64,000 nt of DNA. Source: a virus. Taxonomy: Duplodnaviria > Caudoviricetes. How positions within the stretch are numbered: position 1 is the stretch's first letter; each line of letters opens with the position of its first letter. The DNA is taken from positions 31,134 through 95,133 of the IMG/VR virus record IMGVR_UViG_3300037249_000698; one strand, given 5' to 3'. Below the pieces are notes generated by a model. It worked only from the letters and a program-made list of their open reading frames with translations. It was not told where the DNA came from and ran no database searches. The position numbers and the translations under genes are program-made. Of the stretch, positions 1,288-22,883 are shown in pieces.

Positions 1288-1295
1288 GTGACTAT

Positions 1296-1598: not shown

Positions 1599-1669
1599 AA
1601 TTTATTGTTGACAAATGGATTTTATTATCGTAAAATATGGTTATCAATTTGGTTAAGGAGCAAACACAA

Positions 1670-2218: not shown

Positions 2219-2230
2219 TCAAAATATTTG

Positions 2231-2273
2231 TTGACAATTAAAATAAGATATAGTAATATATACTATATCTTAT
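2231..2273 (+). promoter_or_regulatory. Early promoter with perfect 13-bp inverted repeat over the -10 box
   Basis: TTGACA 2231; ataagatatagta-ATATA-tactatatcttat 2243-2273. Confidence 0.85.
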
Positions 2274-2292
2274 GAAACAGGGAGCAAACACA

Positions 2293-2706
2293 ATGGATAA
2301 TCAGATAATTAAAAAAGTATTAAATGCTATGTTTGATAACGGATTAGAAAGTTTTATTGAAAAAATGGTTTTCAGTAAAGCTAGATATAAGGATGATTAT
2401 TTTAAAAAGTATTTCAAGACTAATGATAAAATCTATTATTTAACTTATAATCAGTATTCTAATATGGTATGTAGTAATATTGAAATAGAATTACAAGAAA
2501 TTGATGAAGATTTGATCGGTTATACTCCTGTAGACTCTGAAAGAATTGTGCTTTATGATACAGTGAACGATGCTTGGGATAGTTTTAGATCTAAACATGA
2601 TGATGATAATTTAACGGATTCTGAAATGGATGCTTTATATGAAGATGAATACAAAGACATTATTTTTGAAGATGTGATAGATATTCTATCAAATTATTGT
2701 TATTAA
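2293..2706 (+). CDS. Acidic early hypothetical protein
   Basis: ATG after GGGAG; D/E-rich C-terminal half. Confidence 0.8.
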   Translation: MDNQIIKKVLNAMFDNGLESFIEKMVFSKARYKDDYFKKYFKTNDKIYYLTYNQYSNMVCSNIEIELQEIDEDLIGYTPVDSERIVLYDTVNDAWDSFRSKHDDDNLTDSEMDALYEDEYKDIIFEDVIDILSNYCY

Positions 2707-2771
2707 CTGTTGACAAAAGAAAAATTATATAGTATCATGTATAACATCAAATAACAAATGGAGTTGAACAA

Positions 2772-3290
2772 ATGAACACATCAATTATAAAACATGCTAA
2801 CGTACGTAACATTAAAGACAAAACTGTTGTTGATGTTGATTACGGATTGGAATATATAAAAGGAAATAGGGATGCATATTTCTTTATAACCGGCACTGAA
2901 TATCATGCAAATAAAAACGGTGAACGTGATGCAAGGCGTAAAGATTGTATTCAGTGCGGAGCAATAGGAGAATATATTTGTACCTTAAACAAAAATTTTG
3001 AAGATTTAAATCACTTTCATGGTAGATATGCGGATGGATCTCCATTATATCCTGTTGAAAATGGTTTGTTTTGGTTAGGTTGCACTAAATATGAAGCGTT
3101 TAATTTAAAATACGTGTGTGAACATTTTATGATAAATGAACAGGAGGCATACAGACTTAAAGATATTATTCATTCAGAAATGGATGATAATAAAAAGCGT
3201 GAAATTTTACAAAATATTATTGATACTGAATATAAAAGTAAATGGTTAGCGGAGGCAAAACGGATTCGAGATAAGTATAACTTGTGGTAA
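2772..3290 (+). CDS. Early hypothetical protein
   Basis: 172-aa ORF, GGAG SD, promoter TTGACA 2710 / TATCAT 2733. Confidence 0.8.
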   Translation: MNTSIIKHANVRNIKDKTVVDVDYGLEYIKGNRDAYFFITGTEYHANKNGERDARRKDCIQCGAIGEYICTLNKNFEDLNHFHGRYADGSPLYPVENGLFWLGCTKYEAFNLKYVCEHFMINEQEAYRLKDIIHSEMDDNKKREILQNIIDTEYKSKWLAEAKRIRDKYNLW

Positions 3291-3307
3291 AAAATTTAAA
3301 ATAACTA

Positions 3308-3349
3308 TTGACAATACAAAAAGGATAGAATATAATGTATCTATCCTTT
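3308..3349 (+). promoter_or_regulatory. Early promoter with -10-centred inverted repeat
   Basis: TTGACA 3308, TATAAT 3331; aaaggataga...tctatccttt. Confidence 0.85.
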
Positions 3350-3385
3350 AGAAACAAAGCGAGTTTAACACAAAAAGGAATTATT

Positions 3386-3703
3386 ATGGAAACTATTAAA
3401 GAAGTACGACAGGATATTAAAAACAAATTAGAAGCTATAAATCAAGATGATTACATGGTAGAAAATGACTTAAAATTAGTATTTGCTCCATCCTGTGGTA
3501 AATATCGTATCGAATTAACAGGGAGTGTAAACAAGGTATTTTTTGCACATAATCTCCGTGAATACAAGCTATGTTTATATAATTTTCACTCTTTAACTTG
3601 GATTTTGAGTAGACATTATAAGAATCCTAACACTGATGATGTTTTATCTATACAAAGTGTTATTGAACTTTTGGAGCATTGCGGATTTTATTATTATTGT
3701 TAA
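3386..3703 (+). CDS. Early hypothetical protein
   Basis: ATG after AAGGA SD. Confidence 0.75.
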   Translation: METIKEVRQDIKNKLEAINQDDYMVENDLKLVFAPSCGKYRIELTGSVNKVFFAHNLREYKLCLYNFHSLTWILSRHYKNPNTDDVLSIQSVIELLEHCGFYYYC

Positions 3704-3719
3704 ATTTTAAAAATAGTTG

Positions 3720-3760
3720 TTGACAAATAAATTAAGATAGTGTATCATAACACTATCTTA
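3720..3760 (+). promoter_or_regulatory. Early promoter with -10-centred inverted repeat
   Basis: TTGACA 3720, TATCAT 3743; taagatagtgt-ATCATA-acactatctta. Confidence 0.85.
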
Positions 3761-3789
3761 TAAAGAAAACCTAACAGGAGTACCAAAAA

Positions 3790-4488
3790 ATGGGATGGGA
3801 TGGAATTTATATCAGTGAACCGCACAAAACTGTATCTGAAAAGTTATCTGTATATTTCAAGTATCACGGATTTTGTGAAAATGAAGTTGTAAAAGCTACT
3901 ATCAAAAATGGTGTTGTTTACGGAGCAATCCGGAACTTAAAAACAAATGATGTATGGGCTATGGTTAGTTTGTTAAAATTCAGAAAGGATGGATGGCAAA
4001 CTGAAATGCTAGTAAAAAATATGAGTGAAGATATGATGCCGTATTATTTTGATTGCCCTAAAGCTATACTTGATTTATTGACAAAAACTGATAATGAACA
4101 TTCTAACGAATGGAGAAAAAGATGCTATGAACAGTTAGCAAACCAAAAGGAAAAAGCAAAAGTAAAAAAGAGTCCATATATTTTTGTAAAATCCGGTATT
4201 AGATTTAGCATGGGTTGTACTTATCATGTGTTTGAAAAAGATTCTACTATGCGAACTAAATATCATACCTTTGAAACAGGATATGGATTAAGAATCAGTC
4301 ATATAAATGATTTTGATGTGCAGTACATATCAGAAGAACAATATTTAAGATGTAAGGATGCATATTATAAGATTAGGGATGCTAAAATTTTAGTAGAGTA
4401 TGAAAAGACTAACGATCCGGAAATGATTAAATTATCACAATTAGAATTATGTGATGTATATCAAAATATTATAAATCAGACTGAATAA
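3790..4488 (+). CDS. DUF6927-like protein
   Basis: MGW start and K.MSEDM.PYYFDCP..ILDLLT....EWR.RC pattern recalled from this mobile-element family. Confidence 0.6.
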   Translation: MGWDGIYISEPHKTVSEKLSVYFKYHGFCENEVVKATIKNGVVYGAIRNLKTNDVWAMVSLLKFRKDGWQTEMLVKNMSEDMMPYYFDCPKAILDLLTKTDNEHSNEWRKRCYEQLANQKEKAKVKKSPYIFVKSGIRFSMGCTYHVFEKDSTMRTKYHTFETGYGLRISHINDFDVQYISEEQYLRCKDAYYKIRDAKILVEYEKTNDPEMIKLSQLELCDVYQNIINQTE

Positions 4489-4491
4489 TTA

Positions 4492-4534
4492 TTGACAAAT
4501 AAAACTAGATAGATTAAAATAAATCTATCTAGTT
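4492..4534 (+). promoter_or_regulatory. Early promoter with 13-bp inverted repeat
   Basis: TTGACA 4492, TAAAAT 4515; aactagatagatt-AAAATA-aatctatctagtt. Confidence 0.85.
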
Positions 4535-4551
4535 AGCAAGGGAGTTATATT

Positions 4552-4974
4552 ATGGGATATGAAGTAAGGGATGTGTTTGATATATTAGAAAAAGAATTAA
4601 CAGATTATTTTTTGTCTTTACCTGTTGAAAAGCAAGTACCATTAATAAATGAATATTATAACACTATTAAAATTATAAAATTAACAGATTGTCTATCAGA
4701 TGATCAAATGGAAAATTTTTATAAAAAAGTTGAAAATTTATATGTAGTATTTTTTGGTAAAACTACATTAGAACCGATTATTTATACAAAAACGGAATTG
4801 ATAAAACAAGACTGGTTTATACATGCCATTAAAACATTATGTTATTGTTATGATAAATTTTCTTTTGATGATATTGAAGATTCTCATATTCAAGATATTA
4901 TTATAACTATGCAAAATGTCGCAAGGGCAATAGACAAAATTAAAAATCAAAAAGTTGAAATAATTTTAAAATAA
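4552..4974 (+). CDS. Early hypothetical protein
   Basis: 140-aa ORF, GGGAG SD. Confidence 0.8.
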   Translation: MGYEVRDVFDILEKELTDYFLSLPVEKQVPLINEYYNTIKIIKLTDCLSDDQMENFYKKVENLYVVFFGKTTLEPIIYTKTELIKQDWFIHAIKTLCYCYDKFSFDDIEDSHIQDIIITMQNVARAIDKIKNQKVEIILK

Positions 4975-4977
4975 TAG

Positions 4978-5019
4978 TTGACAACAAATAAAGATAGTAT
5001 TATAATGATACTATCTTTA
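4978..5019 (+). promoter_or_regulatory. Early promoter with 12-bp inverted repeat
   Basis: TTGACA 4978, TATAAT 5001; taaagatagtat-TATAATG-atactatcttta. Confidence 0.85.
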
Positions 5020-5038
5020 ATACAGGGAGTAATAACAA

Positions 5039-5515
5039 ATGATGATAGATTTAGAAATTATTATTGAAGAATTAGATCGCTTTTATAACGTTCACTGTTT
5101 AGAAAATGATAGATTAAACAAGTTTTCAAAGTGCATTATTGAAGATGCAAAAAGAATGATAACAAATGTTATTTCAGACTATGGATTTGAAATTGAGTCT
5201 AAACAGGAATTAGCAAAACGGATTTCAAAAAACAGATATGAATATTTAGATCTCACAAAATTTGCGGAATTAATATCATCCTGTAGTATTGATGCGGAAA
5301 TTTGCACAGATACAATTTATAAAAGATATTTATCAGATAATCTGTATAATGCGTATAAGAATGAAGATCCAAGTTTTGAAGATGCTAGAAAACGTATGAT
5401 CGGATATAGACAAAATATGACTGATATTTATTTAGAGGCTAAAAGTTATGCTAAGGCATGGCAAAAAATCGAACGTATTATTGATGATATAGAAGAATTT
5501 AAACTAACACATTAA
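5039..5515 (+). CDS. Early hypothetical protein
   Basis: 158-aa ORF, GGGAG SD. Confidence 0.8.
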   Translation: MMIDLEIIIEELDRFYNVHCLENDRLNKFSKCIIEDAKRMITNVISDYGFEIESKQELAKRISKNRYEYLDLTKFAELISSCSIDAEICTDTIYKRYLSDNLYNAYKNEDPSFEDARKRMIGYRQNMTDIYLEAKSYAKAWQKIERIIDDIEEFKLTH

Positions 5516-5523
5516 AATAATTG

Positions 5524-5560
5524 TTGACAAGTTTTGTGAGTAGTAGTAAAATACTACTCA
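5524..5560 (+). promoter_or_regulatory. Early promoter with inverted repeat
   Basis: TTGACA 5524, TAAAAT 5547; tgagtagta-GTAAAA-tactactca. Confidence 0.8.
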
Positions 5561-5586
5561 TAAACCAAAAACAGGGAGTTAAAATT

Positions 5587-6120
5587 ATGAATGATTGTGA
5601 ATATATAAAAGACTTTTGGACTAATGATGATGTTAGAATTGTTTACAGTACAGACTTTTTGAAACAGGATAAGGAAAACGATTTTAAAAAAGCTATTGAA
5701 AACCTGTATGAATATATGGTAAACGGAGATTTTGAAACAGAATTTGATTTTGATGTAGAAAACGATTATTGCATCTTATGTGAAGAATATCCGGAACTTG
5801 AAACATATAATATCTTGCATCGTATGGGGGATTTAGACTCATATTGTGAAGAATTTAATATAACAATTAGTAACTTTTTGGAAAATATGGATGATAGCTT
5901 TAGTTTGTGCGATAATTATTTTTGTGATAGTAGACAATATATAAGCGGAGATAGTTTAACTAGTTTTAATATTGATTATTTAGATATTGTTAGACAAATA
6001 GCATTTTCACCGGAAAAATTACTACAATTTGAAAACGGAAAAAACATTATTTTAAAAAATTTAGATTGTGACCATTTAAAAAAGATACTTATTGATATTC
6101 TAAACTGTATTGAAAAATAA
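5587..6120 (+). CDS. Highly acidic early protein, probable distant paralog of 484..894
   Basis: ATG after GGGAG; D/E-rich; both share a D.YFC motif followed by an ES/SF-like segment. Confidence 0.75.
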   Translation: MNDCEYIKDFWTNDDVRIVYSTDFLKQDKENDFKKAIENLYEYMVNGDFETEFDFDVENDYCILCEEYPELETYNILHRMGDLDSYCEEFNITISNFLENMDDSFSLCDNYFCDSRQYISGDSLTSFNIDYLDIVRQIAFSPEKLLQFENGKNIILKNLDCDHLKKILIDILNCIEK

Positions 6121-6123
6121 ATC

Positions 6124-6166
6124 TTGACAATATTTTTAAAGTAGTATAGATAATTCTATACTACTT
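6124..6166 (+). promoter_or_regulatory. Early promoter-like module with 12-bp inverted repeat
   Basis: TTGACA 6124; aagtagtataga-TAAT-tctatactactt; -10 spacing imperfect. Confidence 0.6.
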
Positions 6167-6425
6167 AATAAAGTAAAGTTATAGATATGGAGAAAAACGG
6201 ATTGTATTATTTTTGCTTAATTATTCTTTTATCATTCCTGTTTGTTATTGATAACATTCTTTTACAGATAATGAGATGATAAACGGAATTTAAATTTTTT
6301 TAAAATAGTTATTGACAAAAGAAAAATAGTATATTATCATATATAGCATAGTAACGGAGCAATATCAAAAAGTTAAACCTGTTACTGATTAAAAAACGGA
6401 TTATAAATAAAAGGAATATAACACT

Positions 6426-7454
6426 ATGAATACTAAAATTGAAACTCTTATTAAAAAATCACTCTGTTTAAACTCTAATACCAATAAAGTTTTAGTTAGT
6501 CAAAAAGACAATATTTTGACTCTTGAAACATCAAACTTTATGGTTAAAATTCCTGTTAATAGTAATGAAACATTTGAAGGTTTTACAAGTTCTGATATTA
6601 TTAAATCTAACAGTATTGATAATATTAAATTTATCACTCGAATTGAAGATACTTCAAACGAATATAGACACGAATTTAAAACTTATTCCAAAAAGGTAGT
6701 TATTAATCCAGTAAATTTTAAAAAGTTATTATTACAGAAAACACAGAGTAATAATGCAAATATTTGTGATGCCGTATGGTTTAATTACGATAATATGTAT
6801 GAAACAAACGGACATTACATCATAGCTATAAATAACGCTTATTCAGAAAACGATTGTACTTTTGGAATAGATAAAAAGATTGTAGAACTATTAAAAAATT
6901 GTACTGAATACTTGTTTGTAAGTTATGAAAATAATGATACAGATTATCACAAATCACAAAATACCAGTATAGAATTAAATATTGACGGAATACTATTTCA
7001 TTATAATTCAGTAATTACTATTTGTGATTTTAAGTCTATGATCCATAATGCTATGAGTTTTAAATCACAAATTTTAAAGGAATACAAGTTTGACAATTTA
7101 AAGGAATTTTCAAAACTGTTAGCGAGTGCTAAAAACGATGAAAAAAGGATTGTATTAGATTTTAAAAAGGATAAATTGACCGCATATAACATCTTTAATG
7201 CAGGTACTATAAACAATTATAAAATGAGTGAGATCGGCACATGTAACAGTAATTATCATTCAGATGATGAATTAAATAGAATTGTAATTGATAGTAACTA
7301 TGCAAAAAAGATAAAAGATGCGATTAAAAATGATGCGGAAATATTATTAAAATTAGAGGGAGATAAAAGATACGGAATAAATAAAATGACCATTAGAAAT
7401 AGTAATTTGACTTTAATTATTATGGGAGTTGTGAATTGTAATTTTATTGAATAG
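6426..7454 (+). CDS. Divergent beta-sliding-clamp-like protein
   Basis: 342 aa; DAVWF...YETNGHYI resembles the clamp GV.F...ATDGHRL motif; ends LIIMGV; promoter TTGACA 6312 / TATCAT 6335. Confidence 0.5.
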   Translation: MNTKIETLIKKSLCLNSNTNKVLVSQKDNILTLETSNFMVKIPVNSNETFEGFTSSDIIKSNSIDNIKFITRIEDTSNEYRHEFKTYSKKVVINPVNFKKLLLQKTQSNNANICDAVWFNYDNMYETNGHYIIAINNAYSENDCTFGIDKKIVELLKNCTEYLFVSYENNDTDYHKSQNTSIELNIDGILFHYNSVITICDFKSMIHNAMSFKSQILKEYKFDNLKEFSKLLASAKNDEKRIVLDFKKDKLTAYNIFNAGTINNYKMSEIGTCNSNYHSDDELNRIVIDSNYAKKIKDAIKNDAEILLKLEGDKRYGINKMTIRNSNLTLIIMGVVNCNFIE

Positions 7455-7465
7455 TCATAAAAATT

Positions 7466-7493
7466 ATAGGGAGTATATATGAATACTCCCTAT
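7466..7493 (+). terminator. Strong hairpin after the clamp-like gene (terminator or processing site)
   Basis: atagggagtat-ATATGA-atactccctat; poor U-tract. Confidence 0.5.
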
Positions 7494-7607
7494 TAAATCA
7501 GTATGAAAAACGGATTAAAAATTTTTAAATTTTTTATTGACAATAAAAAGTCATTGTAGTATCATGTATTCCATACGATGAACGGATAACAAATACGGAG
7601 TAACGAT

Positions 7608-7961
7608 ATGAATACTTTAAAAGATTTAATTAAAAATTCATTCCATAATTTTAATGAAAAATTTTCTTTATTAAAAAATGATGTTTTCTATACTGTAGAG
7701 ATCCAGTATGATTTAAATGTGGAATATTCAGATCCGGAAATTGTTGTATGTATGGAGACAAAAAAGCATAAAATTGAATTTAGTTTTCATTTGAATAGTT
7801 TTTTTAATGATTATTATAATGGGGATAATTTTGAAAAACAGTATAATCATTTTCAAAATTCTGTTTTAAACTCTATTAGAAACAGATATTCATTTGTTAA
7901 ACATAATGATGATAGTTTTATTAAAAAGTGCTTTTTTGGAGGTCAATATATATATTACTAA
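7608..7961 (+). CDS. Early hypothetical protein
   Basis: GGAG SD; promoter TTGACA 7537 / TATCAT 7560. Confidence 0.8.
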   Translation: MNTLKDLIKNSFHNFNEKFSLLKNDVFYTVEIQYDLNVEYSDPEIVVCMETKKHKIEFSFHLNSFFNDYYNGDNFEKQYNHFQNSVLNSIRNRYSFVKHNDDSFIKKCFFGGQYIYY

Positions 7962-8067
7962 TAATGTGATACAGGTCATAAAACGGATTATTTTAAAATT
8001 GACCTGTTGACAATTAAAAAACAATATGCAATAATATATTCATGTTTTGAGATATGGAGTAAACAAT

Positions 8068-8307
8068 ATGACTAATAAAGAATTTAGCGAATACAGATCC
8101 GGCAAAAAATGTGCTTCAGAATATATCATGGAGCTTGTCAATATACGTGTATATAATCCGGATAGTTTAACATCAAGACAATTAAAACAGATTATTAAAG
8201 ATAAAATTGATTTATCAAATAAGTTAATTACTGATAATAATCAAGTATCATTTAATCAAGGTTATAAACATACTATGGAGGATTTTTTACACTTCATCAC
8301 AAAATAA
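8068..8307 (+). CDS. Early hypothetical protein
   Basis: ATG after GGAG; promoter TTGACA 8007 / AATAAT 8030; CRP-like box 7965-7980. Confidence 0.75.
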   Translation: MTNKEFSEYRSGKKCASEYIMELVNIRVYNPDSLTSRQLKQIIKDKIDLSNKLITDNNQVSFNQGYKHTMEDFLHFITK

Positions 8308-8319
8308 ATCAAATAGTAA

Positions 8320-8361
8320 TTGACAATTAAAAAAGATAGTATTATGATAATACTATCTTTT
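8320..8361 (+). promoter_or_regulatory. Early promoter with 14-bp inverted repeat
   Basis: TTGACA 8320, TATGAT 8343; aaaagatagtatta-TGA-taatactatctttt. Confidence 0.85.
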
Positions 8362-8380
8362 AGAAAACAGGAGCAAAAAA

Positions 8381-8707
8381 ATGACTATTAAAAGATCTGA
8401 TATTGATTTTCTTGTAAATGATATAAATGAACAGTTAAAAAATTTTTATTTATCAAATATAGATAAAATTGTCGCTAGAAAAGATCAAAAAGGATTCTGT
8501 ATTGAATATATAATTAATGGTAAACAATCAAATAGTTTTTATGCTAACCTTAGTAAAAATCAGATTTATATTTTTCTTGAAACATTAAACAGGTTATTAT
8601 ATAAAAATGTGACCATAACAGGATGCACAGATACCGAAGATCAGAAAAAAGGCAATACAGATTTAATCGTTAATTTGATTGAATTTTGGAATAAATCAAA
8701 TATATAA
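8381..8707 (+). CDS. Early hypothetical protein
   Basis: AGGAG SD. Confidence 0.8.
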   Translation: MTIKRSDIDFLVNDINEQLKNFYLSNIDKIVARKDQKGFCIEYIINGKQSNSFYANLSKNQIYIFLETLNRLLYKNVTITGCTDTEDQKKGNTDLIVNLIEFWNKSNI

Positions 8708-8814
8708 AATGTGGAAATAAATCACAAAATTTTAAAAATAGTGTTTGACAATAAAACAAAATTAGTTTAGAATGATACTCATAAATCGTTAAACACTATT
8801 TAAGGAGTACAAAA

Positions 8815-9126
8815 ATGATTATTTTAAACACTGAAAACAAATTAAAACTTGAAATTATTTACAATGTAATTAGTTCTATTATTTATGATTACAGAGTAAC
8901 TTTAAATTTAAGTGCTAGATACAGAATTGAATTTTCATGCGATAAAGGTATTGTATCCGCTGTATTCTTAGATAATGATGAAGAAGTAATTAAATGCGAT
9001 ACTTTTAAGGATATATCCTTTTATAAAATGTTTTATGGATTCGTAAACGGCATTATTATTGAATATGCTTATAACGATATAGTAATTGAACAGGAGCACA
9101 AAATTATTGCCACAATAAAAATCTAA
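8815..9126 (+). CDS. Early hypothetical protein
   Basis: AAGGAG SD; promoter TTGACA 8745 / TAGAAT 8768 enclosed by inverted repeat 8737-8800. Confidence 0.8.
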   Translation: MIILNTENKLKLEIIYNVISSIIYDYRVTLNLSARYRIEFSCDKGIVSAVFLDNDEEVIKCDTFKDISFYKMFYGFVNGIIIEYAYNDIVIEQEHKIIATIKI

Positions 9127-9223
9127 CAGGGATCACAAAATTTAATAGTGCTATTGACAACAAAATTGAATAGCACTATAATAAAAACAGTTAAACGGAT
9201 AAAACAATACAGGAGCTAAAGCT

Positions 9224-9481
9224 ATGAACAAATCATTATTAGTTAAAAGTGCGTATATTAAACTTGAAAACAATGATGCTTATATTGTAAGGCAGTATGA
9301 AGATCGATTAAGTTTAGAGTTTAGTCCGGCGGGGGATCGTGAATTTTACGAAGTGCGGATTTCTCCTGTATTGAATAGCTTTATTAAATTGATTCAATGG
9401 TATAAGGCAGTAGAAAATTACAAATTTATTCAGATTGCCTACCGTCATTCTAAGGAATTTTTAAAAGTAAAAACAATTTAG
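9224..9481 (+). CDS. Early hypothetical protein
   Basis: AGGAG SD; promoter TTGACA 9154 / TATAAT 9177 with inverted repeat atagtgctatt/aatagcactat. Confidence 0.8.
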   Translation: MNKSLLVKSAYIKLENNDAYIVRQYEDRLSLEFSPAGDREFYEVRISPVLNSFIKLIQWYKAVENYKFIQIAYRHSKEFLKVKTI

Positions 9482-9502
9482 TTGTATTGTACTCCAGTGA
9501 TT

Positions 9503-9531
9503 AAAGGGACTAATTTTTTAGTCCCTTTTTT
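9503..9531 (+). terminator. Intrinsic terminator
   Basis: aaagggacta...tagtccc followed by T6. Confidence 0.8.
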
Positions 9532-9562
9532 GTTATTCCAGAAAAAACATAAAATTTAATAC

Positions 9563-9808
9563 AGGGACTATAAATTATTTGAAACAGGATAATTAAAACC
9601 AAAAACGGATTAAAAGTTATATTATAAAAATTACCATAAAGGGATTATAAATTATTCAGATAAATATAAATAATTGTGTAAACGGATTAAATTTTAAAGG
9701 GATTTTAAAAATTAAAAGTCAAGTAAATTAAATCAAAAATTAGATAAAAGTCACAAAATATTTTGAATGATAAACGGATTATTAAATTGTGCATAAAGTC
9801 ACAAAATA
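9563..9808. repeat. Degenerate direct-repeat tract (~77-bp period)
   Basis: aggga(c/t)tataaattatt at 9563 and 9640; aaacggatta at 9603, 9680, 9773; aaagtcacaaaata twice. Confidence 0.6.
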
Positions 9809-9899
9809 AATTAAAAAGTAATTGCAATTTGAATTTAATTTAATTATAATAGAATACATAAAATGATTAAGGCATAAATCAATTTTAGGAGTACACATT

Positions 9900-10226
9900 A
9901 TGAAACAATTTATTACATTTAAAAAACTGAAGAAGTGTTATGACATCGTTGTTTGTGGTGGTAATTTTTCTGAAATTGCAAAAAGTATTGAACCTGTATA
10001 CTATCATCACGGCAAATATGGATGGGATTGCGACATTATAACCGGATTTGTAGAACACGGAGATCGGGTGTATAGCGTTGCGGTGTGTTTAGGTTATCGT
10101 TGCATTGGTATGGAATTAAAAGGCATGTATGAGTTTATGCACGCTAAAAATGAACTTGCCAAAATGCACGTATTGAATGAAGAAGAATTTTGGATAGATT
10201 TACAAAATTTTGTATTTAAAAATTAA
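9900..10226 (+). CDS. Early hypothetical protein (G.YGW.CD motif)
   Basis: AGGAG SD; promoter TTGCAA 9822 / TATAAT 9845; CRP-like box 9788-9803. Confidence 0.8.
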   Translation: MKQFITFKKLKKCYDIVVCGGNFSEIAKSIEPVYYHHGKYGWDCDIITGFVEHGDRVYSVAVCLGYRCIGMELKGMYEFMHAKNELAKMHVLNEEEFWIDLQNFVFKN

Positions 10227-10264
10227 AGCACATGGCACATCAATTACACATTAAAATCACGCTT

Positions 10265-10293
10265 AAAGACTGATAAAAATATCAGTCTTTTTT
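10265..10293 (+). terminator. Intrinsic terminator
   Basis: aaagactgata/tatcagtc followed by T6. Confidence 0.8.
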
Positions 10294-11198
10294 ATTTATC
10301 CGCCAAAATATGATAGTTAAAACAGGTAGAAAGAATTTTACTCAAATAATAGTTTGACTTATTAAGAAGATATGGCATCAATCACTAAGAATTAACGCCA
10401 TAAGATCTAATAAGTGCCGTTTTTAATTCATAGTATTATATGTTAAATTCAGATTTTATAGTAAATTGTTTGACTTTTTTAAAAGTAAGTAATAAGTTTT
10501 AATTATCTCACGATATTTTATACTTATAATTCCGCTTAAAAACAAAAAGTAATACTTTATGAAAATTTAGTCTAATAAAAAAAATTACTCATAAAATGCA
10601 CTTTTTTAACGTTTTTTAAGGGATAGAGCACGATATACACATATTGGTATATGTCTTGTCAACCATTCCTATAGCAAACACCTAAAAGCCCAAAAATCAA
10701 AAATATAAATAATATATATTTTTTAAAAATGAAATATAGATATATATATCTACATCATTATATATTAGAGTATAAATATCATGGTATAGAGTAGTATTCA
10801 GTATTTAGAAAAAACCGAAGTAAAAGCATATTAAACATAGTAATTTAGTATGATATACAGCGTGTATATTTCAGTCTGATAATGCGGAATAGTTATCTAT
10901 ATGATGTGGTTTATTAGTCTGTATAGATACGTGATTATAACTGTATAGATAGAGTGACCATATAAGCGTAAAATCTCATAGAATAAGGCTAAATTGCAAA
11001 ATATCCGCTTGTAATAGTCCGGTAATATGGTTAATAGGGAAATACGCTACAGGGCAATAAAACACAAATAAACCGCATTTTTGACGATGTGTAATATTAG
11101 TGTGATATAAGTCAAAAAATTTATTAAATAATGATTGTAAAGTGAATTATATTTTGATACAATTTAAGTATGTAAAAACCATTTAAGGAGCGTAAACT

Positions 11199-11576
11199 AT
11201 GATAAAAAATTCAAATTTAAATGAAGTATTTTACAGTACTGTAAAAATGCTATTGGATGGAGTATGGAACGGAGCACAGGTTCTTTTTTCACAAAATTTA
11301 GACAAGGAGACTAAATTTGATATAGAGTTTAATATCAAAAAAAATGCCGGATCACAAAATTCTTACTCTGTAGAATTTAATGACATCGATTTAATCGATC
11401 CTTCCAATAATGCCGATCCCGCTAAATTTACAGTCTACACTGAAACTAGACTGTTTCAAGTGATTGACATGTTATTAGAGCACTCTATGTTAGACGGCAA
11501 TGCTAAATGCCGGATCTATGACTCAGACGGAGATAGAGTGTGTGAATTTTGTTTTGTGTGGGAAAGTGATATATAA
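11199..11576 (+). CDS. Acidic hypothetical protein
   Basis: AAGGAG SD; promoter TTGTAA 11135 / TACAAT 11158; CRP-like box 11101-11116. Confidence 0.8.
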   Translation: MIKNSNLNEVFYSTVKMLLDGVWNGAQVLFSQNLDKETKFDIEFNIKKNAGSQNSYSVEFNDIDLIDPSNNADPAKFTVYTETRLFQVIDMLLEHSMLDGNAKCRIYDSDGDRVCEFCFVWESDI

Positions 11577-11615
11577 TCGATATTGTTTCATGTAAAACAT
11601 TTAAGGAGTACAAAT

Positions 11616-11963
11616 ATGACATTATATGAAGAACTTTACAAAATCGTGAAAGAAAAAAAGGTTAAAGTCTGGAATTTTGCGGGTAATACTTATGAGTTCA
11701 CCCATTTTACAGGGAATCATCATTATCAGGTTAGACTTGCTTATGTGGGTAAATATTACGATGAGTATTTGACGACAACTCATATTGTAAAATTATCTAG
11801 ACATAATTTTGATTACATTATCAAAAAACTAATGTATCAAATTATCAGAAACACTTTAAGAAATTCCGCACAAGTTCGCTTTAATGTTTATTACGCTAAA
11901 CAAAAACTTGTGCAAGTTCACAGCTCTACAGGTGATTTTTACGGATGGAAAAAACCTGAGTAA
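11616..11963 (+). CDS. Basic hypothetical protein
   Basis: ATG after AAGGAG. Confidence 0.75.
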   Translation: MTLYEELYKIVKEKKVKVWNFAGNTYEFTHFTGNHHYQVRLAYVGKYYDEYLTTTHIVKLSRHNFDYIIKKLMYQIIRNTLRNSAQVRFNVYYAKQKLVQVHSSTGDFYGWKKPE

Positions 11964-12049
11964 AGTCACAAAATAATCTTTTCATAGCTTGCAAGTAATA
12001 TGCGAGCTATGATAGAATAGTCTTACAATTTAAATATAGGAGTAACAAT

Positions 12050-12256
12050 ATGAACAGTAACAACAGTATGCCGTATAACGCTTCAGTAGAAAAAACAGGA
12101 GTGATCTTGACTCTCATCGGTATGATAGCCGGCTTTTTTATCATGCTTTACGGCTTGGCAGTAAATAACGCTTATATCGGCTTGATCGGGTTATTCCTTA
12201 GTTTAGGTGTATTCATGTTAATGCCATTATTCTACAAGTTGGCTAAAATATTGTAA
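12050..12256 (+). CDS. Two-TM membrane protein
   Basis: Two hydrophobic segments; AGGAG SD; promoter TTGCAA 11989 with inverted repeat. Confidence 0.75.
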   Translation: MNSNNSMPYNASVEKTGVILTLIGMIAGFFIMLYGLAVNNAYIGLIGLFLSLGVFMLMPLFYKLAKIL

Positions 12257-12277
12257 CAATTACAGGGAGGAAACATT

Positions 12278-12526
12278 ATGAATTTATCTTATTGTGGTTT
12301 AATGCTTAATATCATGTTTGCTTTAACTCTATCCAGTAACACCAGTAATGCCCTTGTTATGCGTGATTTGCGTACACTCGAGACAATAGTCAATAACAAG
12401 AAGTCTAGTAAGGCAATCGATGTTAATGCACTTTTAAGCGAGTTTAAACAGGTTACACACCTTAAAATCAGTCATAATGACCTGTATAATTATTTCATGT
12501 TTCATGGTGTGAAGTTTCATGTATAA
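12278..12526 (+). CDS. Hypothetical protein
   Basis: GGAGG SD. Confidence 0.7.
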   Translation: MNLSYCGLMLNIMFALTLSSNTSNALVMRDLRTLETIVNNKKSSKAIDVNALLSEFKQVTHLKISHNDLYNYFMFHGVKFHV

Positions 12527-12624: not shown

Positions 12625-12751
12625 GCCTGTTAAATATCCCATATAGTTTTTATATGCTTGACAACAAAATTTAATCTAATATAATTATTAAGTTAGATTT
12701 ATTTTTAGGTTGTCTATCTAACATAATATCACATATAATTATTATGCTTTA

Positions 12752-13017
12752 TACTTGACATAATATCTAGTATAATTTTTATATAGTGTAATTGACCTAA
12801 ATATACAGTATAATTTTTATACATATAATTTTTATACCAGACCAAACCAGCTTTTATACGTATGATATGGCTATAATTTTTATGTGGTATGCGTCTAAAA
12901 ACTAGGCGGAGGGGGCATACTTTTTATACCCATTTTTTGCCCTCGGAATATCTAAAGTTTCCCCTCTGATATAAAAAGTTTTACAACATTCCCCTCTGAT
13001 TCAAAAAATGTTACAAT
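12752..13017. repeat. Right boundary element: TATAATTTTTAT x4, G-rich run, 30-bp tandem repeat
   Basis: tataatttttat at about 12771, 12809, 12824, 12872; ggcggaggggg 12905-12915; ttcccctctgat...ttacaa at 12959 and 12989. Confidence 0.65.
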
Positions 13018-13052: not shown

Positions 13053-14150
13053 ATGAGATATTTGATATGGTGTGAAGTCAATCGTGCGTGGCAAGAAGCA
13101 TGTTTAGTGTGGCTGTATTCACTGTGCAGGGAGTTGTGTTTTTGTGAGCATGAGGTAAAGGTTGTGATATTTTACGATGTAGGCAAAACCTCCGCTGACA
13201 ACAATGATACCAACACAATCTCATTCAGCAACCGTGTTCAGCAGATAGGGATGAGATTTAACGTAGAGATTGAGGTTGAATTATTTAGCAGTCGAGATTT
13301 TGTATCAGACCTCCCACCGACATTTGCATCAAACAGGTGTATTGACGAGGATAGTGTAGCGATAGCAATATCTAGGGTGATGAATTACAACAAGTTATTG
13401 TCTGACAATTTAGATAGCTCTATACAACCGATGATGTTATCTGCGGATAGTCGCAACGTAATCAACTCAAATCTACGGATATGCAATCCGAACGCCCCTG
13501 ACAACACCATCGACAACGGTGTGGTTTATATCCATTGTGATATTGACGGAATGTTTTTAGAGGATAGTAATTTAGAGTTATTATTTGACGGTATTGACTC
13601 TGTGATAGCTGACAATGATTCCCCATTGTTAATCGGCGTAAACGAGTATGATGATATTGAGCCTGCCTTATCCAAGACTCATTCAGAGGAGTTTATGACT
13701 AGGTTACAAGGCGTGTATTTAAATTGTGGTTTTATTTGTTTTTACAATGTACCAACATTTGACCTTGCTGAACTGAAAGACTTTTTATCTACCGAGGACT
13801 CTTACTGTTTAGAGCAAGACTATCTCAACTTATTAGGCTGTGACAATCCCTCTCTGACTCGCATTTGTTTACAACCTCAATACAATTACACTTACAGGAA
13901 GATGCTTGTCGAAACGCCAAAACAACCTTTTACGTTGCCTGTATTCGTACATTACTACGGCTCTGACAAACCGTTTTTACCGAATCCCAAATCTACTAAC
14001 GGTATAGACTCTGACGTAACGCCTGCGATAGCTCACTATTATTTTCCTGAATATGGTCAGTTAGTATTTAAGATTCGTTGCTTATTAAGCGTAGATTTTG
14101 TGAATTTAGTACGCAAAAGATGCGTAGAAGAATATTGGACTGAGCGATAA
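13053..14150 (+). CDS. Glycosyltransferase family 8-like protein
   Basis: DxD (DIDG), LNCGF, EQDYLN and VHYYGSDKPF motifs typical of GT8. Confidence 0.7.
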   Translation: MRYLIWCEVNRAWQEACLVWLYSLCRELCFCEHEVKVVIFYDVGKTSADNNDTNTISFSNRVQQIGMRFNVEIEVELFSSRDFVSDLPPTFASNRCIDEDSVAIAISRVMNYNKLLSDNLDSSIQPMMLSADSRNVINSNLRICNPNAPDNTIDNGVVYIHCDIDGMFLEDSNLELLFDGIDSVIADNDSPLLIGVNEYDDIEPALSKTHSEEFMTRLQGVYLNCGFICFYNVPTFDLAELKDFLSTEDSYCLEQDYLNLLGCDNPSLTRICLQPQYNYTYRKMLVETPKQPFTLPVFVHYYGSDKPFLPNPKSTNGIDSDVTPAIAHYYFPEYGQLVFKIRCLLSVDFVNLVRKRCVEEYWTER

Positions 14151-14196
14151 ACTACTGGTCAGAACGATAACCCTTACCACCAACAAGGTAATTATT

Positions 14197-14412
14197 ATGA
14201 ACAAGATTAAGTTATTTTTAGCCGAAACCATCACTCACAGTCTCTTTTGCTGTTTAGGCGGAGGGTTGCTGTATCTGATTTACCCCCTGCACCCGATAAT
14301 TGTTTCGGTACTTTTTCCGACAGTGTATTTTTATGTGTTGTATTTTTGTTATGACAACGTATCAAGGTTTATAAATCGTAAGTTGAGTGTGGTAAAGATT
14401 TTGGGTAGATAA
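14197..14412 (+). CDS. Two-TM membrane protein
   Basis: Hydrophobic 71-aa ORF, AAGG SD. Confidence 0.65.
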   Translation: MNKIKLFLAETITHSLFCCLGGGLLYLIYPLHPIIVSVLFPTVYFYVLYFCYDNVSRFINRKLSVVKILGR

Positions 14413-14575
14413 TTTTGGGCAGTAATTAAAAATTAAAATTTCAAAATTTTCTATTGACAAACTCATTTCAGAGGTGTAAACTAAGACTTACTTAGTCGGA
14501 GGCGGTATTATTTACTATCACTACCGCCATAACCCCGACACTACCCTCCCTTTATACTTTATTTAAGGAGAATAA

Positions 14576-15115
14576 ATGCTACAAAAAGAAAATGAAGATG
14601 TTATCTCGCATCTCAAACAGCGTGGCTACGACATTATCAGACAGCTACAAATTATCGACAAGGAATATGACGAAAATGATTTTCCCGACCCGAAAAAAGT
14701 TATCTCAAACGATACTATTGTTAAAGACCTGCTGTTAAGAGAGCCTAGAGTTATTGATTACAAAAACCTACGGCGGTCTGAAAAAGAATATTTATTGAAA
14801 CGTGCCGACTTAGGTCAGGAAAGTATCGACTATCGGTTAAGAATTGGATGGACATTAGAGGATGCGTATATGATTCCAAAAGCGTGTAAAAGACCTGTTA
14901 CCCCTAGAGTTTACAAAAACAAACCACAAAACTCCTACAACTTAAAACAGCTTGCCAAAGTTACTGGTATTCCTGCCGAATGTATCACTGACTTTGTTGA
15001 GGAATGGCTTTTTCCTGAACCGTCTGTCGCATCTCCTATGACTTGGAATAAAGAGACTTTTCCTGAAATAAAGAAATTTGTCAGACGTTACTTGAAAAAG
15101 GAGATAACATTATGA
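14576..15115 (+). CDS. Putative DNA-binding regulator (C-terminal MerR/excisionase-like HTH)
   Basis: YNLKQLAKVTGIP...FPEP...TW pattern; promoter TTGACA 14454. Confidence 0.5.
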   Translation: MLQKENEDVISHLKQRGYDIIRQLQIIDKEYDENDFPDPKKVISNDTIVKDLLLREPRVIDYKNLRRSEKEYLLKRADLGQESIDYRLRIGWTLEDAYMIPKACKRPVTPRVYKNKPQNSYNLKQLAKVTGIPAECITDFVEEWLFPEPSVASPMTWNKETFPEIKKFVRRYLKKEITL

Positions 15116-15384
15116 TGATAAAAGAACCTGTTAGCTGTGGAGAAGATGATTCCGAATCATCATCACCATTTTGGCAATACGTATTCTTCACAGTATTTAT
15201 TTTATTAGCCATTGTTTCTGTGGTAGTGTGTGCAGTCTTATACGACACTCGCACATCCGAAACAGTTGTGATTGATAGTCCTAAAACCAATCCCATCACC
15301 ATCCACTCCTACACTATTCAATGTACTCATAACGATGAATATTACTGTTCAGAGTACAAAGTGTATAAAATTATTAGAGATTAG
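15112..15384 (+). CDS. Single-TM membrane protein
   Basis: Hydrophobic helix, AAGGAG SD. Confidence 0.65.
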   Translation: MMIKEPVSCGEDDSESSSPFWQYVFFTVFILLAIVSVVVCAVLYDTRTSETVVIDSPKTNPITIHSYTIQCTHNDEYYCSEYKVYKIIRD

Positions 15385-15433
15385 AGAGATATTATTATGC
15401 AGTTAGTTATCAAATATAATACAAGGAGTTAAA

Positions 15434-15907
15434 ATGCAGTTAGTTATTAAATACTTACATCACGAAGAACAGCTTAAAAACACAACTTTCACCCCTCACG
15501 GTCAATCCGCAGGTTACGACCTATGTGTTGCCGTGGATGAACCTGTTGTTCTGCAACCTAATGAGTCAAAGTTACTCCCTACAGGTATTTCTTTACGCAT
15601 GTATCAATTTGACTGCGGTGGATTTATCTTTCCGAGAAGTGGTCTAGGCTCAAAAGGTATCGTTCTGCGTAATACCGTAGGCGTTATCGACCCTGACTAT
15701 ACAGGCGAGATTAAGTTAGCGGTGTGGAATACAACAAACGAACCTGTGACAATCGAGCCGTTTCAGCGTGTGGCACAAATTGTATTCCTGCCTGTGATAC
15801 ATCCATCTGTGTTTTACGCAAGCTCTACTGAATATACTTTGCCTGACCAAGAATTTAAAGGTGTAGTTACTCGTGGCGACAAAGGCTTTGGCTCGACAGG
15901 TATTTAA
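15434..15907 (+). CDS. dut: Trimeric dUTPase
   Basis: AGYDL, PRSGLG, GVIDPDYTGEI, RVAQI and RGDKGFGSTG motifs. Confidence 0.97.
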   Translation: MQLVIKYLHHEEQLKNTTFTPHGQSAGYDLCVAVDEPVVLQPNESKLLPTGISLRMYQFDCGGFIFPRSGLGSKGIVLRNTVGVIDPDYTGEIKLAVWNTTNEPVTIEPFQRVAQIVFLPVIHPSVFYASSTEYTLPDQEFKGVVTRGDKGFGSTGI

Positions 15908-15943
15908 AACATTTTGATATAAACATCTTCTAAGGAGTTTGCT

Positions 15944-16207
15944 ATGATTATGCTTATTGTAATTTTATTGGTTGTAGTTTTACCATTTACAATCTTTTAT
16001 GCTTTTGCATCTTCCGACCCAAGTGCGTGTGCTTTTACTATAACAGGCGTTATTATATGCCAGTTGCTTGACTCTGCATGTGGAACAACAGTATTTTTTC
16101 TAATTGTCGGCTCTATGTTTGCTTGGTGTTTTTACGTTATCGGTCAATTTTGTTATGACGCTTACAAAAATTACAAAAAAGGCAAAAAATGGTTCGATAT
16201 TGGCTAA
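15944..16207 (+). CDS. Membrane protein
   Basis: Multi-TM 87 aa, AAGGAG SD. Confidence 0.65.
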   Translation: MIMLIVILLVVVLPFTIFYAFASSDPSACAFTITGVIICQLLDSACGTTVFFLIVGSMFAWCFYVIGQFCYDAYKNYKKGKKWFDIG

Positions 16208-16247
16208 AAATACTTGCAAAACATTTTTAATTTGTTATAATAGCTAT

Positions 16248-16328
16248 ATCAAAGTTCATATTTTGATACTCCTTATGTGAAGTTGTTTGTGTTATACCCA
16301 CGGTCGCTTTTTGGCTGTGGGTTTTTTT
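16248..16328 (+). ncRNA. Candidate antisense sRNA A (anti-AUG loop plus anti-SD)
   Basis: TTGCAA 16214 -16- TATAAT 16236 (extended -10); no sense ORF; CAT 16257 and ACTCCTTA 16268; terminator 16297-16328. Confidence 0.6.
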
Positions 16329-16352
16329 ATATTTTGACGTTATATAATTCCA

Positions 16353-16388
16353 TTTGCTACTCTAATTGCTACTCTATTTGCTACTCAA
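16353..16388. repeat. 3 x 12-bp tandem repeat with core TTGCTACTC upstream of the lysis promoter
   Basis: tttgctactcta attgctactcta tttgctactcaa. Confidence 0.8.
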
Positions 16389-16484
16389 TTTACCCTTTAA
16401 AAGCGTTTTCTTAAACATAGTGTATAATATCCGTATAAAGATGTGTTAATAGTCGATAAATTATACGTAATAAGAGGTTGAGAG

Positions 16485-16979
16485 ATGATTTTTAGTAGCA
16501 AGATTCCTGACGATGGTAAAAAAGCATTATTGCAATTACAACAACAGTTCGGATGGTCAGAAGATCAACTCGATTACCTTATTGCTTGTATGAAATTCGA
16601 GTCAAATCTTAATCCGCAAGCCGTAAATAAGGCTTCGGGTGCTGTGGGTTTGATTCAGTTTATGCCTAGTATCTGTAAAGCATACGGCACAACCGCAGAA
16701 CTTATGAAATCTCGCTCTTTTGCCGAACAGATACCTTACGTTAAAAAGCATTTTCTCCCTTATTACAAACGTACTTGCACCCTTTCCGATATGTATATGG
16801 CTATTCTTTATCCTAGCTGTATCGGTAAGCCTGACGATTATCCTATGTTCGTCAACGGCAAAAAATATGAACAGAACAAAGGTCTTGATAAAAACAAAGA
16901 TCATATAGTCACAAAAATCGAGGCTACTCTTATGGTTTTAAAGTGCTATGAGCAAGGTTTGCAAGATAGAGGACTATGA
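16485..16979 (+). CDS. Endolysin, lytic transglycosylase (SLT-like)
   Basis: FESNLNPQAVN..SGAVGLIQFMP motif. Confidence 0.9.
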   Translation: MIFSSKIPDDGKKALLQLQQQFGWSEDQLDYLIACMKFESNLNPQAVNKASGAVGLIQFMPSICKAYGTTAELMKSRSFAEQIPYVKKHFLPYYKRTCTLSDMYMAILYPSCIGKPDDYPMFVNGKKYEQNKGLDKNKDHIVTKIEATLMVLKCYEQGLQDRGL

Positions 16980-16980
16980 A

Positions 16981-17310
16981 ATGTTTGATGAACAGTTTAA
17001 AGAAATCTTGAACGGCTTGTTATTTGCCGTGATAGCAGGTGTAGGAGGTTCTGTGGCATATTTATCTTCATTGTTCGGCAACCGTAAAAAGTTCGTGCTA
17101 TTCGACTTTTTTGTTAAGGTTTTGTCAAGTGCGTTCGCAGGTCTGCTGATAGGTTGGCTTTTGAGCTACTATCAGTACCCTATTTCAGTCATTTGTTCCG
17201 TTACAGGTACAGCAGGCTATATAGGGGCAGATTTTACTATCAACCTATTAAAACGCATCATTACAAGTAAGGCAGAATTAGTCGTTGTTGACAAGGAGAA
17301 TGACAAATGA
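16981..17310 (+). CDS. Holin
   Basis: Three TM segments between endolysin and spanins; ATG after GAGGA. Confidence 0.8.
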   Translation: MFDEQFKEILNGLLFAVIAGVGGSVAYLSSLFGNRKKFVLFDFFVKVLSSAFAGLLIGWLLSYYQYPISVICSVTGTAGYIGADFTINLLKRIITSKAELVVVDKENDK

Positions 17311-17843
17311 ACTGGTTAAAAATTCTCCCACAGGCTCTACTCGGTGTTACTTGGCTCATTCTGTTCGCAACCGGATATTACATGGGGTCAGACGCTACTA
17401 ATCAGCGTAATGAACTTAAACAGAGCCAAATTACTAATGATTATCAGAATAAAATTAACGAACTTGTTGAACTTGTACGTTCACAGGAAATTGCAAATCA
17501 ACACAAAATAAACACTATTATTTCAGAACAGCTTGAAAAAGAGGAGATGATTAAAAATGACTACGAAAACATTATTGAAGATTTGCGTAATAACACACTT
17601 GTTGTTGATGGGTTGCACGAATGTAAAGACAGTTCAAACACCAAAGCAGATATGCCCCGAAATAAGCCAGTTACCGCCGAACTTGTCTGTTTTACAAAAG
17701 CCGATTTATACGGAAAAATTGAAAAAAGTTTGGCTATCACAGCCGAATGTGACAAAGTAGTTGAGAAATACAATGCTCTGCTAAAGGTCTATAACGAACA
17801 ATTTAACACATTAAACCATAAAGAGGCTTTATATGGAAAATGA
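17307..17843 (+). CDS. rz: Inner-membrane spanin (Rz-like)
   Basis: N-terminal TM, coiled coil, position in the lysis cassette. Confidence 0.8.
   Translation: MNWLKILPQALLGVTWLILFATGYYMGSDATNQRNELKQSQITNDYQNKINELVELVRSQEIANQHKINTIISEQLEKEEMIKNDYENIIEDLRNNTLVVDGLHECKDSSNTKADMPRNKPVTAELVCFTKADLYGKIEKSLAITAECDKVVEKYNALLKVYNEQFNTLNHKEALYGK
17557..17760 (+). CDS. rz1: Outer-membrane lipoprotein spanin (Rz1-like), fully embedded in rz
   Basis: GAGGAG SD, lipobox LLMGC, Pro-rich mature part, +1 frame. Confidence 0.8.
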   Translation: MTTKTLLKICVITHLLLMGCTNVKTVQTPKQICPEISQLPPNLSVLQKPIYTEKLKKVWLSQPNVTK

Positions 17844-22645: not shown

Positions 22646-22675
22646 GTTTATACTATTTATCGTGTATAATAAAAA

Positions 22676-22723
22676 TACTCCTTTATTTGTGACTTTTGGG
22701 GTTGAGAAATCAACCCCTTTTTT
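22676..22723 (+). ncRNA. Candidate ~47-nt anti-SD sRNA B
   Basis: TATAAT 22665 just after a terminator; transcript starts TACTCCTTTATTTGTGAC; terminator ggggttga-GAAA-tcaacccc-T6. Confidence 0.5.
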
Positions 22724-22883
22724 AACAAAAATACCGCTTTTTTCAGAAAATTTAAAAGTGTGATATTATAGTATCTGTTACGAATACGTGATGTTGAGTA
22801 GCAATCTTCGGTGCGTGATGCTAAGAATGATTTAATAAAGTTATTTTTTGTTTTAATGTTATTTTTATAGGAGATGGCTACTC

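Follow-up and report, generated by a model that had tools for sequence, protein, structure and literature searches.

A candidate small-RNA cassette 5′ of the lysis genes of an uncultured phage from rumen-type metagenomes

What does a short intergenic segment do that lies directly upstream of the lysis genes of a tailed phage and consists of a promoter, an antisense copy of a translation-initiation region, and a terminator? A preliminary description of this segment, here called cassette A, proposed that it encodes a small RNA (sRNA) that blocks ribosome-binding sites in trans. To our knowledge, hardly any work has dealt with the regulatory RNAs of virulent and uncultured phages. The phage sRNAs that have been characterised are mostly from prophages of enteric bacteria (PMC12197685). 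We find that cassette A is probably an accessory phage gene for a trans-acting sRNA, a reading that we hold with middling confidence. Comparative data by themselves make a small number of sRNA genes credible in this lineage of rumen phages, with a defined seed and a testable target class.

Cassette A and its setting

The window analysed here is a stretch of 64,000 nt, bases 31134–95133 of a virus record that is complete at 95,133 bp and has direct terminal repeats. The phage is siphovirus-like and uncultured, and rumen-type metagenomes are its only source. A DNA search of 50,697 phage records gave no match; its TerL is ~45% identical to the TerL of Vibrio, Acinetobacter, and Stenotrophomonas siphoviruses. 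The spanin and nrdD/nrdG genes point to a Gram-negative and anaerobic host. No match to the Hfq or ProQ families is encoded in the phage genome. The + strand opens with a very AT-rich early block of ~22 small genes (484–12526), and the late region follows. Between the two, at 12721–12837 and 12959–13016, is a repeat cluster with three copies of TATAATTTTTATA-type units at a 37-nt period, plus 1.9 copies of a 30-nt repeat. These repeats might mark an origin, a packaging site, or a group of promoters.

The features of cassette A, its neighbours, and two further units are collected in Table 1. The promoter, the non-coding body, and the strong terminator of the preliminary description were all found, at 16214–16328 on the + strand.

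Table 1. Coordinates of cassette A, of the flanking features, and of units B and C (window positions).
Feature	Position	Strand	Basis or remark
dUTPase gene	15434–15907	+	upstream of cassette A
87-aa membrane protein gene	15944–16207	+	followed by cassette A
−35 hexamer TTGCAA, sRNA A promoter	16214–16219	+	promoter scan
Extended −10 TGTTATAAT, 16-nt spacer after the −35	16233–16241	+	promoter scan
Predicted sRNA A transcript, ~82 nt	16248–16329	+	start placed 7 nt past the −10, end in the T-run
5′ hairpin TATCAAA/TTTGATA, loop GTTCATAT with anti-AUG	16247–16268	+	folding
Seed AUACUCCUUAUGUG (anti-Shine-Dalgarno UACUCCUUA), unpaired in both low-energy folds	16266–16279	+	folding
GU-rich linker AAGUUGUUUGUGUUAU 5′ of the terminator	16280–16295	+	partly kept in L002 (AGUUGUU.GUGUG)
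Intrinsic terminator: 11-pair stem 16296–16322, T7 16322–16328	16296–16328	+	terminator scan
12-nt triple repeat	16352–16391		3′ of cassette A
Conserved promoter, GTGTATAAT	16420–16428	+	3′ of cassette A
Genes for SLT endolysin, LydA-type holin, Rz-like spanin, TerS, TerL, portal, scaffold, major head protein			3′ of the conserved promoter
Unit B: −10 GTGTATAAT, seed CUCCUUUAUUUGUGA (22678–22692), U-rich linker, 8-pair terminator + T6	22662–22723	+	
Unit C: TTGCAT-16-TGTTATAAT, ~72-nt body, terminator	55635–55741	−	after nrdD
Unit C promoter	55741–55713	−	
Unit C terminator	55665–55638	−	

The cassette A promoter matches the consensus at 10 of 12 positions, has the additional TG, and is among the two best in 5 kb. 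Promoter-like hexamer pairs as such are no commoner than in shuffled DNA (17 found vs. 17.1 expected), and thus the weight rests on conservation in relatives. The body segment 16249–16281 is the exact reverse complement of CACATAAGGAGTATCAAAATATGAACTTTGATA, which bears out the claim that it copies a Shine-Dalgarno-spacer-ATG region in antisense. No conserved ORF covers sRNA A on either strand. The + strand frames over the body are without a ribosome-binding site and are closed in the sister phage L002.

The predicted 82-nt RNA A folds better than all of 200 shuffles (z = −4.1). With the TATCAAA/TTTGATA hairpin enforced, its energy is −22.6 kcal/mol; an alternative fold, which places the anti-Shine-Dalgarno (anti-SD) tract in a 13-nt loop, is nearly isoenergetic at −23.3. 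That is, the 5′ hairpin described earlier as displaying an anti-AUG can form, and the anti-SD tract is unpaired in either fold, but the hairpin has a close rival. Its anti-AUG, present in the loop of the window hairpin, is missing in the L008 homologue. The U7 tail after the 11-pair stem and the GU-rich linker before it fit the terminator expected of a base-pairing sRNA with Hfq-type architecture. The same terminator also closes the upstream operon, 13053–16207. A search of the window against Rfam, the C4, Spot 42, and phage RNA families included, gave no match at gathering thresholds; the best sub-threshold scores are 15.7–28.1 bits, against thresholds of 49.5–80.

Sister phages and sister units

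Relatives were sought among sister contigs from IMG/VR and metagenomes by endolysin and TerL protein searches. One of them, L022, hardly differs from the window. In L002/L015, DNA identity to the window is 91–97% for the flanking genes and 77%, with indels, for the cassette body, and the promoter spacer agrees at 3 of 16 positions. Despite the scrambled spacer, both promoter hexamers (TTGCAA and TATAAT) are kept in L002 at all 12 positions. The 5′ hairpin is also kept there and, despite a loop indel, is extended to 11 pairs; so are the CUCCUUAUGU tract and the terminator pairing, in which one G·U has become A-U.

More distant phages have a unit at the same spot. L008/L017 (TerL 84%) have an extended −10, TGCTATAAT, a different terminator, and a body that is diverged yet recognisably related (AAAGUUC..UUGA.CUCCUCCUAAG), with the tract ACUCCUCCUAAG. 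L011/L100 (TerL 76%) have TTGAAA-17-TAATAT, and ACCUCCUU lies within a 16-nt terminator loop. The terminator stems of L008 and L011 are quite unlike the window's, although their location is the same. A CUCCU core is common to the four lineages. Where the unit is present, it keeps three parts, as follows: a promoter, an exposed anti-SD tract, and a terminator. The unit is absent from L003/L026, L018/L028, L019/L020, and the GC-richer lineages (the terminator runs straight to the late promoter), so cassette A is an optional, or accessory, insert. Only three to four lineages carry a unit at this site, and the covariation statistics are therefore thin.

Two of the pairs of phages that do without cassette A, L018/L028 and L019/L020, have a hairpin in the last ~90 nt before the endolysin ATG. 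Its 5′ arm is in the promoter spacer and its 3′ arm is at or beside the endolysin Shine-Dalgarno sequence. The arms covary, being CTCCCGA/TCGGGGG in one case and CCCTCTG/GCGGAGGG in the other. By analogy, this looks like the masking of read-through transcripts known from T4 gene e.

Unit B lies between the scaffold gene's own terminator and the promoter of the capsid gene. Its predicted RNA is ~47 nt long. The 15-nt seed is invariant in window/L007, L008, and L006 (scaffold identity to the window 63–64%) and follows a conserved TATAAT by 7–9 nt, from which it follows that the seed forms the 5′ end of the RNA. Of the eight terminator pairs, five change compensatorily across lineages, all as Watson-Crick pairs, when counted from individual folds for each lineage. 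The terminator is preceded by a U-rich stretch that reads CUUUU, AUUUUUU, or CUGUUUU in three lineages. These features are the textbook signature of a base-pairing sRNA. Judged by its sequence, unit B is the best supported of the units and the strongest sign that such units function in this phage group. An IMG/VR pattern search for further homologues of B returned the known relatives only, plus two chance matches inside genes.

In unit C, the 5′ part, CUGUAAAUCAGU, is kept in L183 (NrdD 81% identity) and the anti-ribosome-binding-site part is not. Another relative has an unrelated promoter-body-terminator unit at the C site. The earlier proposal that the design of cassette A recurs at 22665 and 55635 is thus true in part. 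At 22665, the promoter-seed-terminator architecture is there, but with only a −10 and no anti-AUG. At 55635, the unit is real, but it is on the minus strand and the part that matters for the comparison is unconserved in L183. Nor do the three form one family: the architecture is common to them, and the sequences are not similar outside the promoters. Paralogy was also considered for A, B, C, and the tail of a tRNA operon and was rejected, as no significant sequence similarity was found outside the promoters.

The tRNA operon just mentioned is 17 kb before the window (genome 13895–14275, minus strand, L180) and encodes four tRNAs (Ser, Ser, Tyr, Gln). Its 350-nt tail contains a 40-aa membrane-like ORF, three anti-SD/anti-AUG elements of the UACUCC or CUCCUU type (AUAUACUCCUAC, CAUUGUUUUCUCCUUAG, and GUUAUACUCCAUU), and then a strong terminator. 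Only seven intergenic copies of TACTCC lie on the strand that is transcribed locally, and five of them are in A, in B, in the tRNA tail (two), and in a 3′ UTR just before a terminator. In this 3′ UTR, the UACUCC tract is 16 nt 5′ of the terminator at 9506 (window 9485–9531). In several of the anti-SD elements, CAU is found 4–11 nt 5′ of the CU-rich tract.

A different element occupies the 5′ leader of the major capsid gene (window 22775–22835). It is a conserved structured element, ..CGUGAUG..GCAAUCUUCGGUGCGUGAUGCUAAGAAUGAUU, without a match in Rfam. It is kept in six lineages, also in those without sRNA B, and 8 of its 18 predicted pairs are compensatory (other copies at L008:10344–10404, L006:10385–10447, L010:4448–4512, L009:10140–10200, and L011:10595–10655).

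Readings of the locus

The trans-acting sRNA reading of cassette A would work as follows. A host sigma70-type RNA polymerase would start near 16248 and stop at the intrinsic terminator. The product of ~82 nt would have a 5′ hairpin, an exposed pyrimidine-rich seed, UACUCCUUAUGUG, a GU-rich linker, the terminator hairpin, and a U7 tail. The seed may be viewed as a copy of the 16S rRNA tail sequence lengthened by phage-specific bases. By pairing in trans with the Shine-Dalgarno and start region of mRNAs, RNA A would lower their translation. The terminator would in addition shield the late promoter, of the activator type, that serves the lysis and packaging genes. From the anatomy of the unit and the way it is conserved, from its missing coding potential, and from the class-specific complementarity described below, we infer that RNA A is made, that it acts by pairing, and which messages it may meet. 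It counts against this reading, among other points, that the terminator is needed anyway for the upstream operon and that promoter-like hexamers are common in this AT-rich DNA. The kept promoter hexamers, together with the independence of unit B from the upstream terminator, favour a separately transcribed RNA. The earlier view of a stand-alone, non-coding unit running from promoter to terminator is supported. To call it an undescribed system was too strong, as phage RNAs that block ribosome-binding sites are a known kind.

The alternative that survives best, though we think it unlikely, is that the segment acts in cis. The terminator would be the end of the 13053–16207 operon, the anti-SD tract would be an element of its 3′ UTR, and the promoter would be secondary or incidental. 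The tract would pair intramolecularly with ribosome-binding sites in its own mRNA, or would cover the endolysin site when transcription reads through, as happens in T4 gene e. Several observations fit. No other terminator is found between 16207 and 16296, and ACUCCUUA is the exact 8-nt complement of TAAGGAGU of the adjacent upstream gene at 15944. The L008 tract complements that phage's own endolysin site, UUAGGAGGA, over 9 nt, and the L011 tract does so over 7 nt. Relatives without the cassette mask the endolysin Shine-Dalgarno sequence with the covarying hairpin, and the UACUCC before the terminator at 9506 is also within a 3′ UTR. However, both promoter hexamers are kept across a scrambled spacer and each lineage has a −10 of its own. 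Unit B keeps its own −10 and seed although the gene upstream of it has a separate terminator. The window's tract matches the endolysin site imperfectly (AUAAGAGGU vs. AUAAGGAGU), and the seed is kept in L002 although the upstream gene differs.

The position of cassette A, directly 5′ of the endolysin, holin, spanin, TerS, TerL, portal, and scaffold genes, is exactly that of the lambdoid PR′-tR′ (6S RNA; StxS), where a promoter and a terminator likewise give a short RNA immediately 5′ of the lysis genes. It might therefore be a gate on the lysis/packaging operon, making a short terminated RNA until a phage antiterminator permits read-through. The late region has several more terminators that a processive antiterminator would need to pass. 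We consider such a gate improbable. The Q families PF03589 and PF06530 are without a match in the complete 95-kb genome, whereas control genomes were matched; an antiterminator of another family is conceivable. A separate, strongly conserved promoter, CGTTTTCTTAAACATAGTGTATAAT, stands between the terminator and the endolysin gene, and sister phages without the cassette run the same operon with this promoter present, so that the unit is dispensable there. The conserved anti-SD tract would also be left unexplained.

The lysis-operon promoter CGTTTTCTTAAACATAGTGTATAAT recurs before the tail gene at 30460. In the window, 3.3 copies of a 12-nt unit, ATTTGCTACTCT, lie directly 5′ of it (repeat and promoter together, 16352–16428), and in L030 another triple repeat takes this place. 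These triple repeats are probably binding sites of a lineage-specific late activator.

It is rather more doubtful still that cassette A is a non-functional recombination scar, in which a chance promoter stands before a needed terminator. The 87-aa gene and the 24 nt after the terminator are present in the window and absent in L002, which places the cassette at a mosaic joint. It is more diverged than its flanks, and promoter-like sites are common in this DNA. Against a scar, the functional elements have been selectively kept amid a scrambled spacer and scrambled loops, units analogous in all three parts occur in independent lineages, and the B seed is invariant and accompanied by compensatory stem changes.

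Least credible of all is that the RNA is the antisense partner of a minus-strand micro-ORF (a type I toxin-antitoxin or sar-like arrangement), or that the segment is the stump of a lost gene: the minus strand does have AAGGAG, a 9-nt spacer, and ATG (16260–16258), L002 has a frame of 40 codons with a hydrophobic start, MNYLILTIIIKIFII, and the CAU beside the CU-rich tracts would fit, but the window peptide (MNFDIAIITN*) has 10 residues and is neither hydrophobic nor long. A frame-breaking indel separates the window frame from that of L002, which is open merely as antisense through an AT-rich promoter and the end of the dUTPase gene. L008 has the Shine-Dalgarno-like complement and, like unit B, is without the start codon. 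To the right of cassette A (16330–17800), the minus strand has no promoter-like site, and every neighbouring gene is on the + strand. The frame is thus not conserved among the window, L002, and L008, which makes a peptide, a type I toxin, or a gene stump unlikely. This agrees with the earlier remark that the frame dies after 10 codons with no evident promoter. The findings named there as fatal to an sRNA, a translated 10-aa peptide or the stump of a minus-strand gene, are not borne out by the sequences: the frame is unconserved, the relatives have no intact minus-strand gene, and no minus-strand promoter is evident.

Complementarity to start regions and known systems

If cassette A is a trans-acting sRNA gene, its best-matching class of start regions is the phage's own early block (484–12526), where they read (U)AAGGAGUA-N6-AUGA. 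Median seed-duplex energies are −15.2 kcal/mol for the early block, −11.4 for the late genes, and −10.4 for the minus-strand block (Mann-Whitney p = 6e-5). Lengthened by 2 nt (UA-CUCC), the anti-SD matches GGAGTA, a sequence found in 8 of 22 early start regions, 0 of 40 late ones, and 11 of 71 in the minus-strand block. In both respects the seed fits early-gene starts better than late ones. The partial complements that the preliminary description listed also exist. Exact complements are short: they span 10 nt at the first early gene (484), which has CACATAAGGA 14 nt ahead of it, and 9 nt at each of 8815, 11606, and 12051. No single target of A stands out, the matches being of 8–10 nt plus interrupted pairing. 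Full-length duplex energies were left out, since long AU-rich imperfect duplexes inflate the values.

Any anti-SD RNA scores against strong Shine-Dalgarno sites. The other three anti-SD elements tested also show a weaker preference for the early block (p = 0.007–0.03), so part of the effect comes from the early genes' strong Shine-Dalgarno sites. As the early block is the best-matching class, the most likely role of RNA A would be the damping or shut-off of early-gene translation. Host mRNAs are possible targets too; the earlier suggestion of host defence genes found no support, as nothing points there.

A more ambitious version, which we put forward tentatively and regard as rather unlikely, is a multi-RNA, class-specific translation switch, in which A, B, and the tRNA-operon tail all display AUACUCC. 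This would be a mimic of the 16S tail extended to the GGAGUA(U) flavour of early start regions. The switch would silence early and host-takeover messages and spare the late genes, whose 40 start regions are without GGAGUA. An early-targeting model predicts that start regions track the seeds, being GGAGCA-rich in L002 (seed UGCUCC) and UUAGGAGG-rich in L008. When seeds were compared with local start regions, own-lineage matches were slightly better, in four lineages only, which are too few to conclude from.

If the early preference is true, phages could time expression with antisense copies of their own ribosome-binding sites, which would account for the anti-SD tracts beside phage terminators and would make the element a compact, portable translational repressor. 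If it is false, the result is still a useful annotation of unrecognised non-coding genes.

Among known systems, the Hfq-type sRNAs of Gram-negative bacteria and prophages come close to A. They too have a promoter of their own (a predicted one in A), a seed that is short and unstructured, U-rich bases, and a terminator that ends in a long U tail. Like them, A is presumed to pair at ribosome-binding sites and is an optional "RNA moron" of the phage that carries it. One example is DicF of the Qin prophage, which blocks the site of ftsZ. A has no sequence or Rfam kinship with these RNAs; the best match, Spot 42, is at 21 bits vs. a gathering score of 80. Unlike the prophage sRNAs (reviewed in PMC12197685), A is in a virulent-looking 95-kb phage with terminal repeats.

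The c4 RNA of P1/P7 and the sar RNA of P22 are likewise small phage RNAs whose exposed bases complement a Shine-Dalgarno and start region. They are directed at one defined neighbouring gene, ant, whereas A is complementary to a class of start regions and has no cognate target gene on the opposite strand or beside it. Moreover, unlike A, c4 is cut from its target's own transcript, and sar is a genuine cis-antisense RNA; the window has no match to Rfam C4. By analogy, the design of the units appears closest to the Hfq-type sRNAs and to c4 and sar, the phage RNAs that cover ribosome-binding sites (PMC12197685).

If the early preference is real, there is also a likeness to T4, in that early messages would be silenced as a class via the Shine-Dalgarno sequence. 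The T4 RegB endoribonuclease cuts GGAG in the Shine-Dalgarno sites of early mRNAs. RegB, which is discussed in PMC9409239, is a protein nuclease, whereas A is an RNA proposed to act by pairing, and the likeness is functional only. The multi-RNA switch, if true, would be the RNA counterpart of RegB.

Single matches were followed up for A and B. A 12-nt match between the linker of A and the leader of the DUF7173 gene is lost in the L002/L182 pair and is probably due to chance. TerL was rejected as a conserved target of B. Its site matches B over 12 nt in the window and L007 but differs in L008 and L006, where the seed is unchanged. Ungapped matches to the B target with at most three mismatches are not enriched (4 found vs. 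3.4 expected).

Unit B has a perfect 15-nt complement in the leader of the DUF7173 gene that adjoins nrdG. This leader (genome 2212–2260, minus strand, L180; L182:1420–1500) consists of a 19-nt unit, NACAnAAAnAAAGGUUU, in tandem; there are two copies here and four in the 99%-identical L182, and the first copy complements sRNA B. The leader is a possible target or sponge of sRNA B.

The sequence AGTCACAAA, complementary to the 3′ half of the B seed, has seven copies in the genome vs. ~1.1 expected, among them those at window 9749, 9797, 11964, 16907, and 18394 and at genome 2254. Most copies are on the transcribed strand, just past stop codons or in leaders. A perfect palindrome, AGGGAGTATATATGAATACTCCCT, lies between two early genes (window 7468–7491), and in it a Shine-Dalgarno sequence and an ATG are paired with their own complement.
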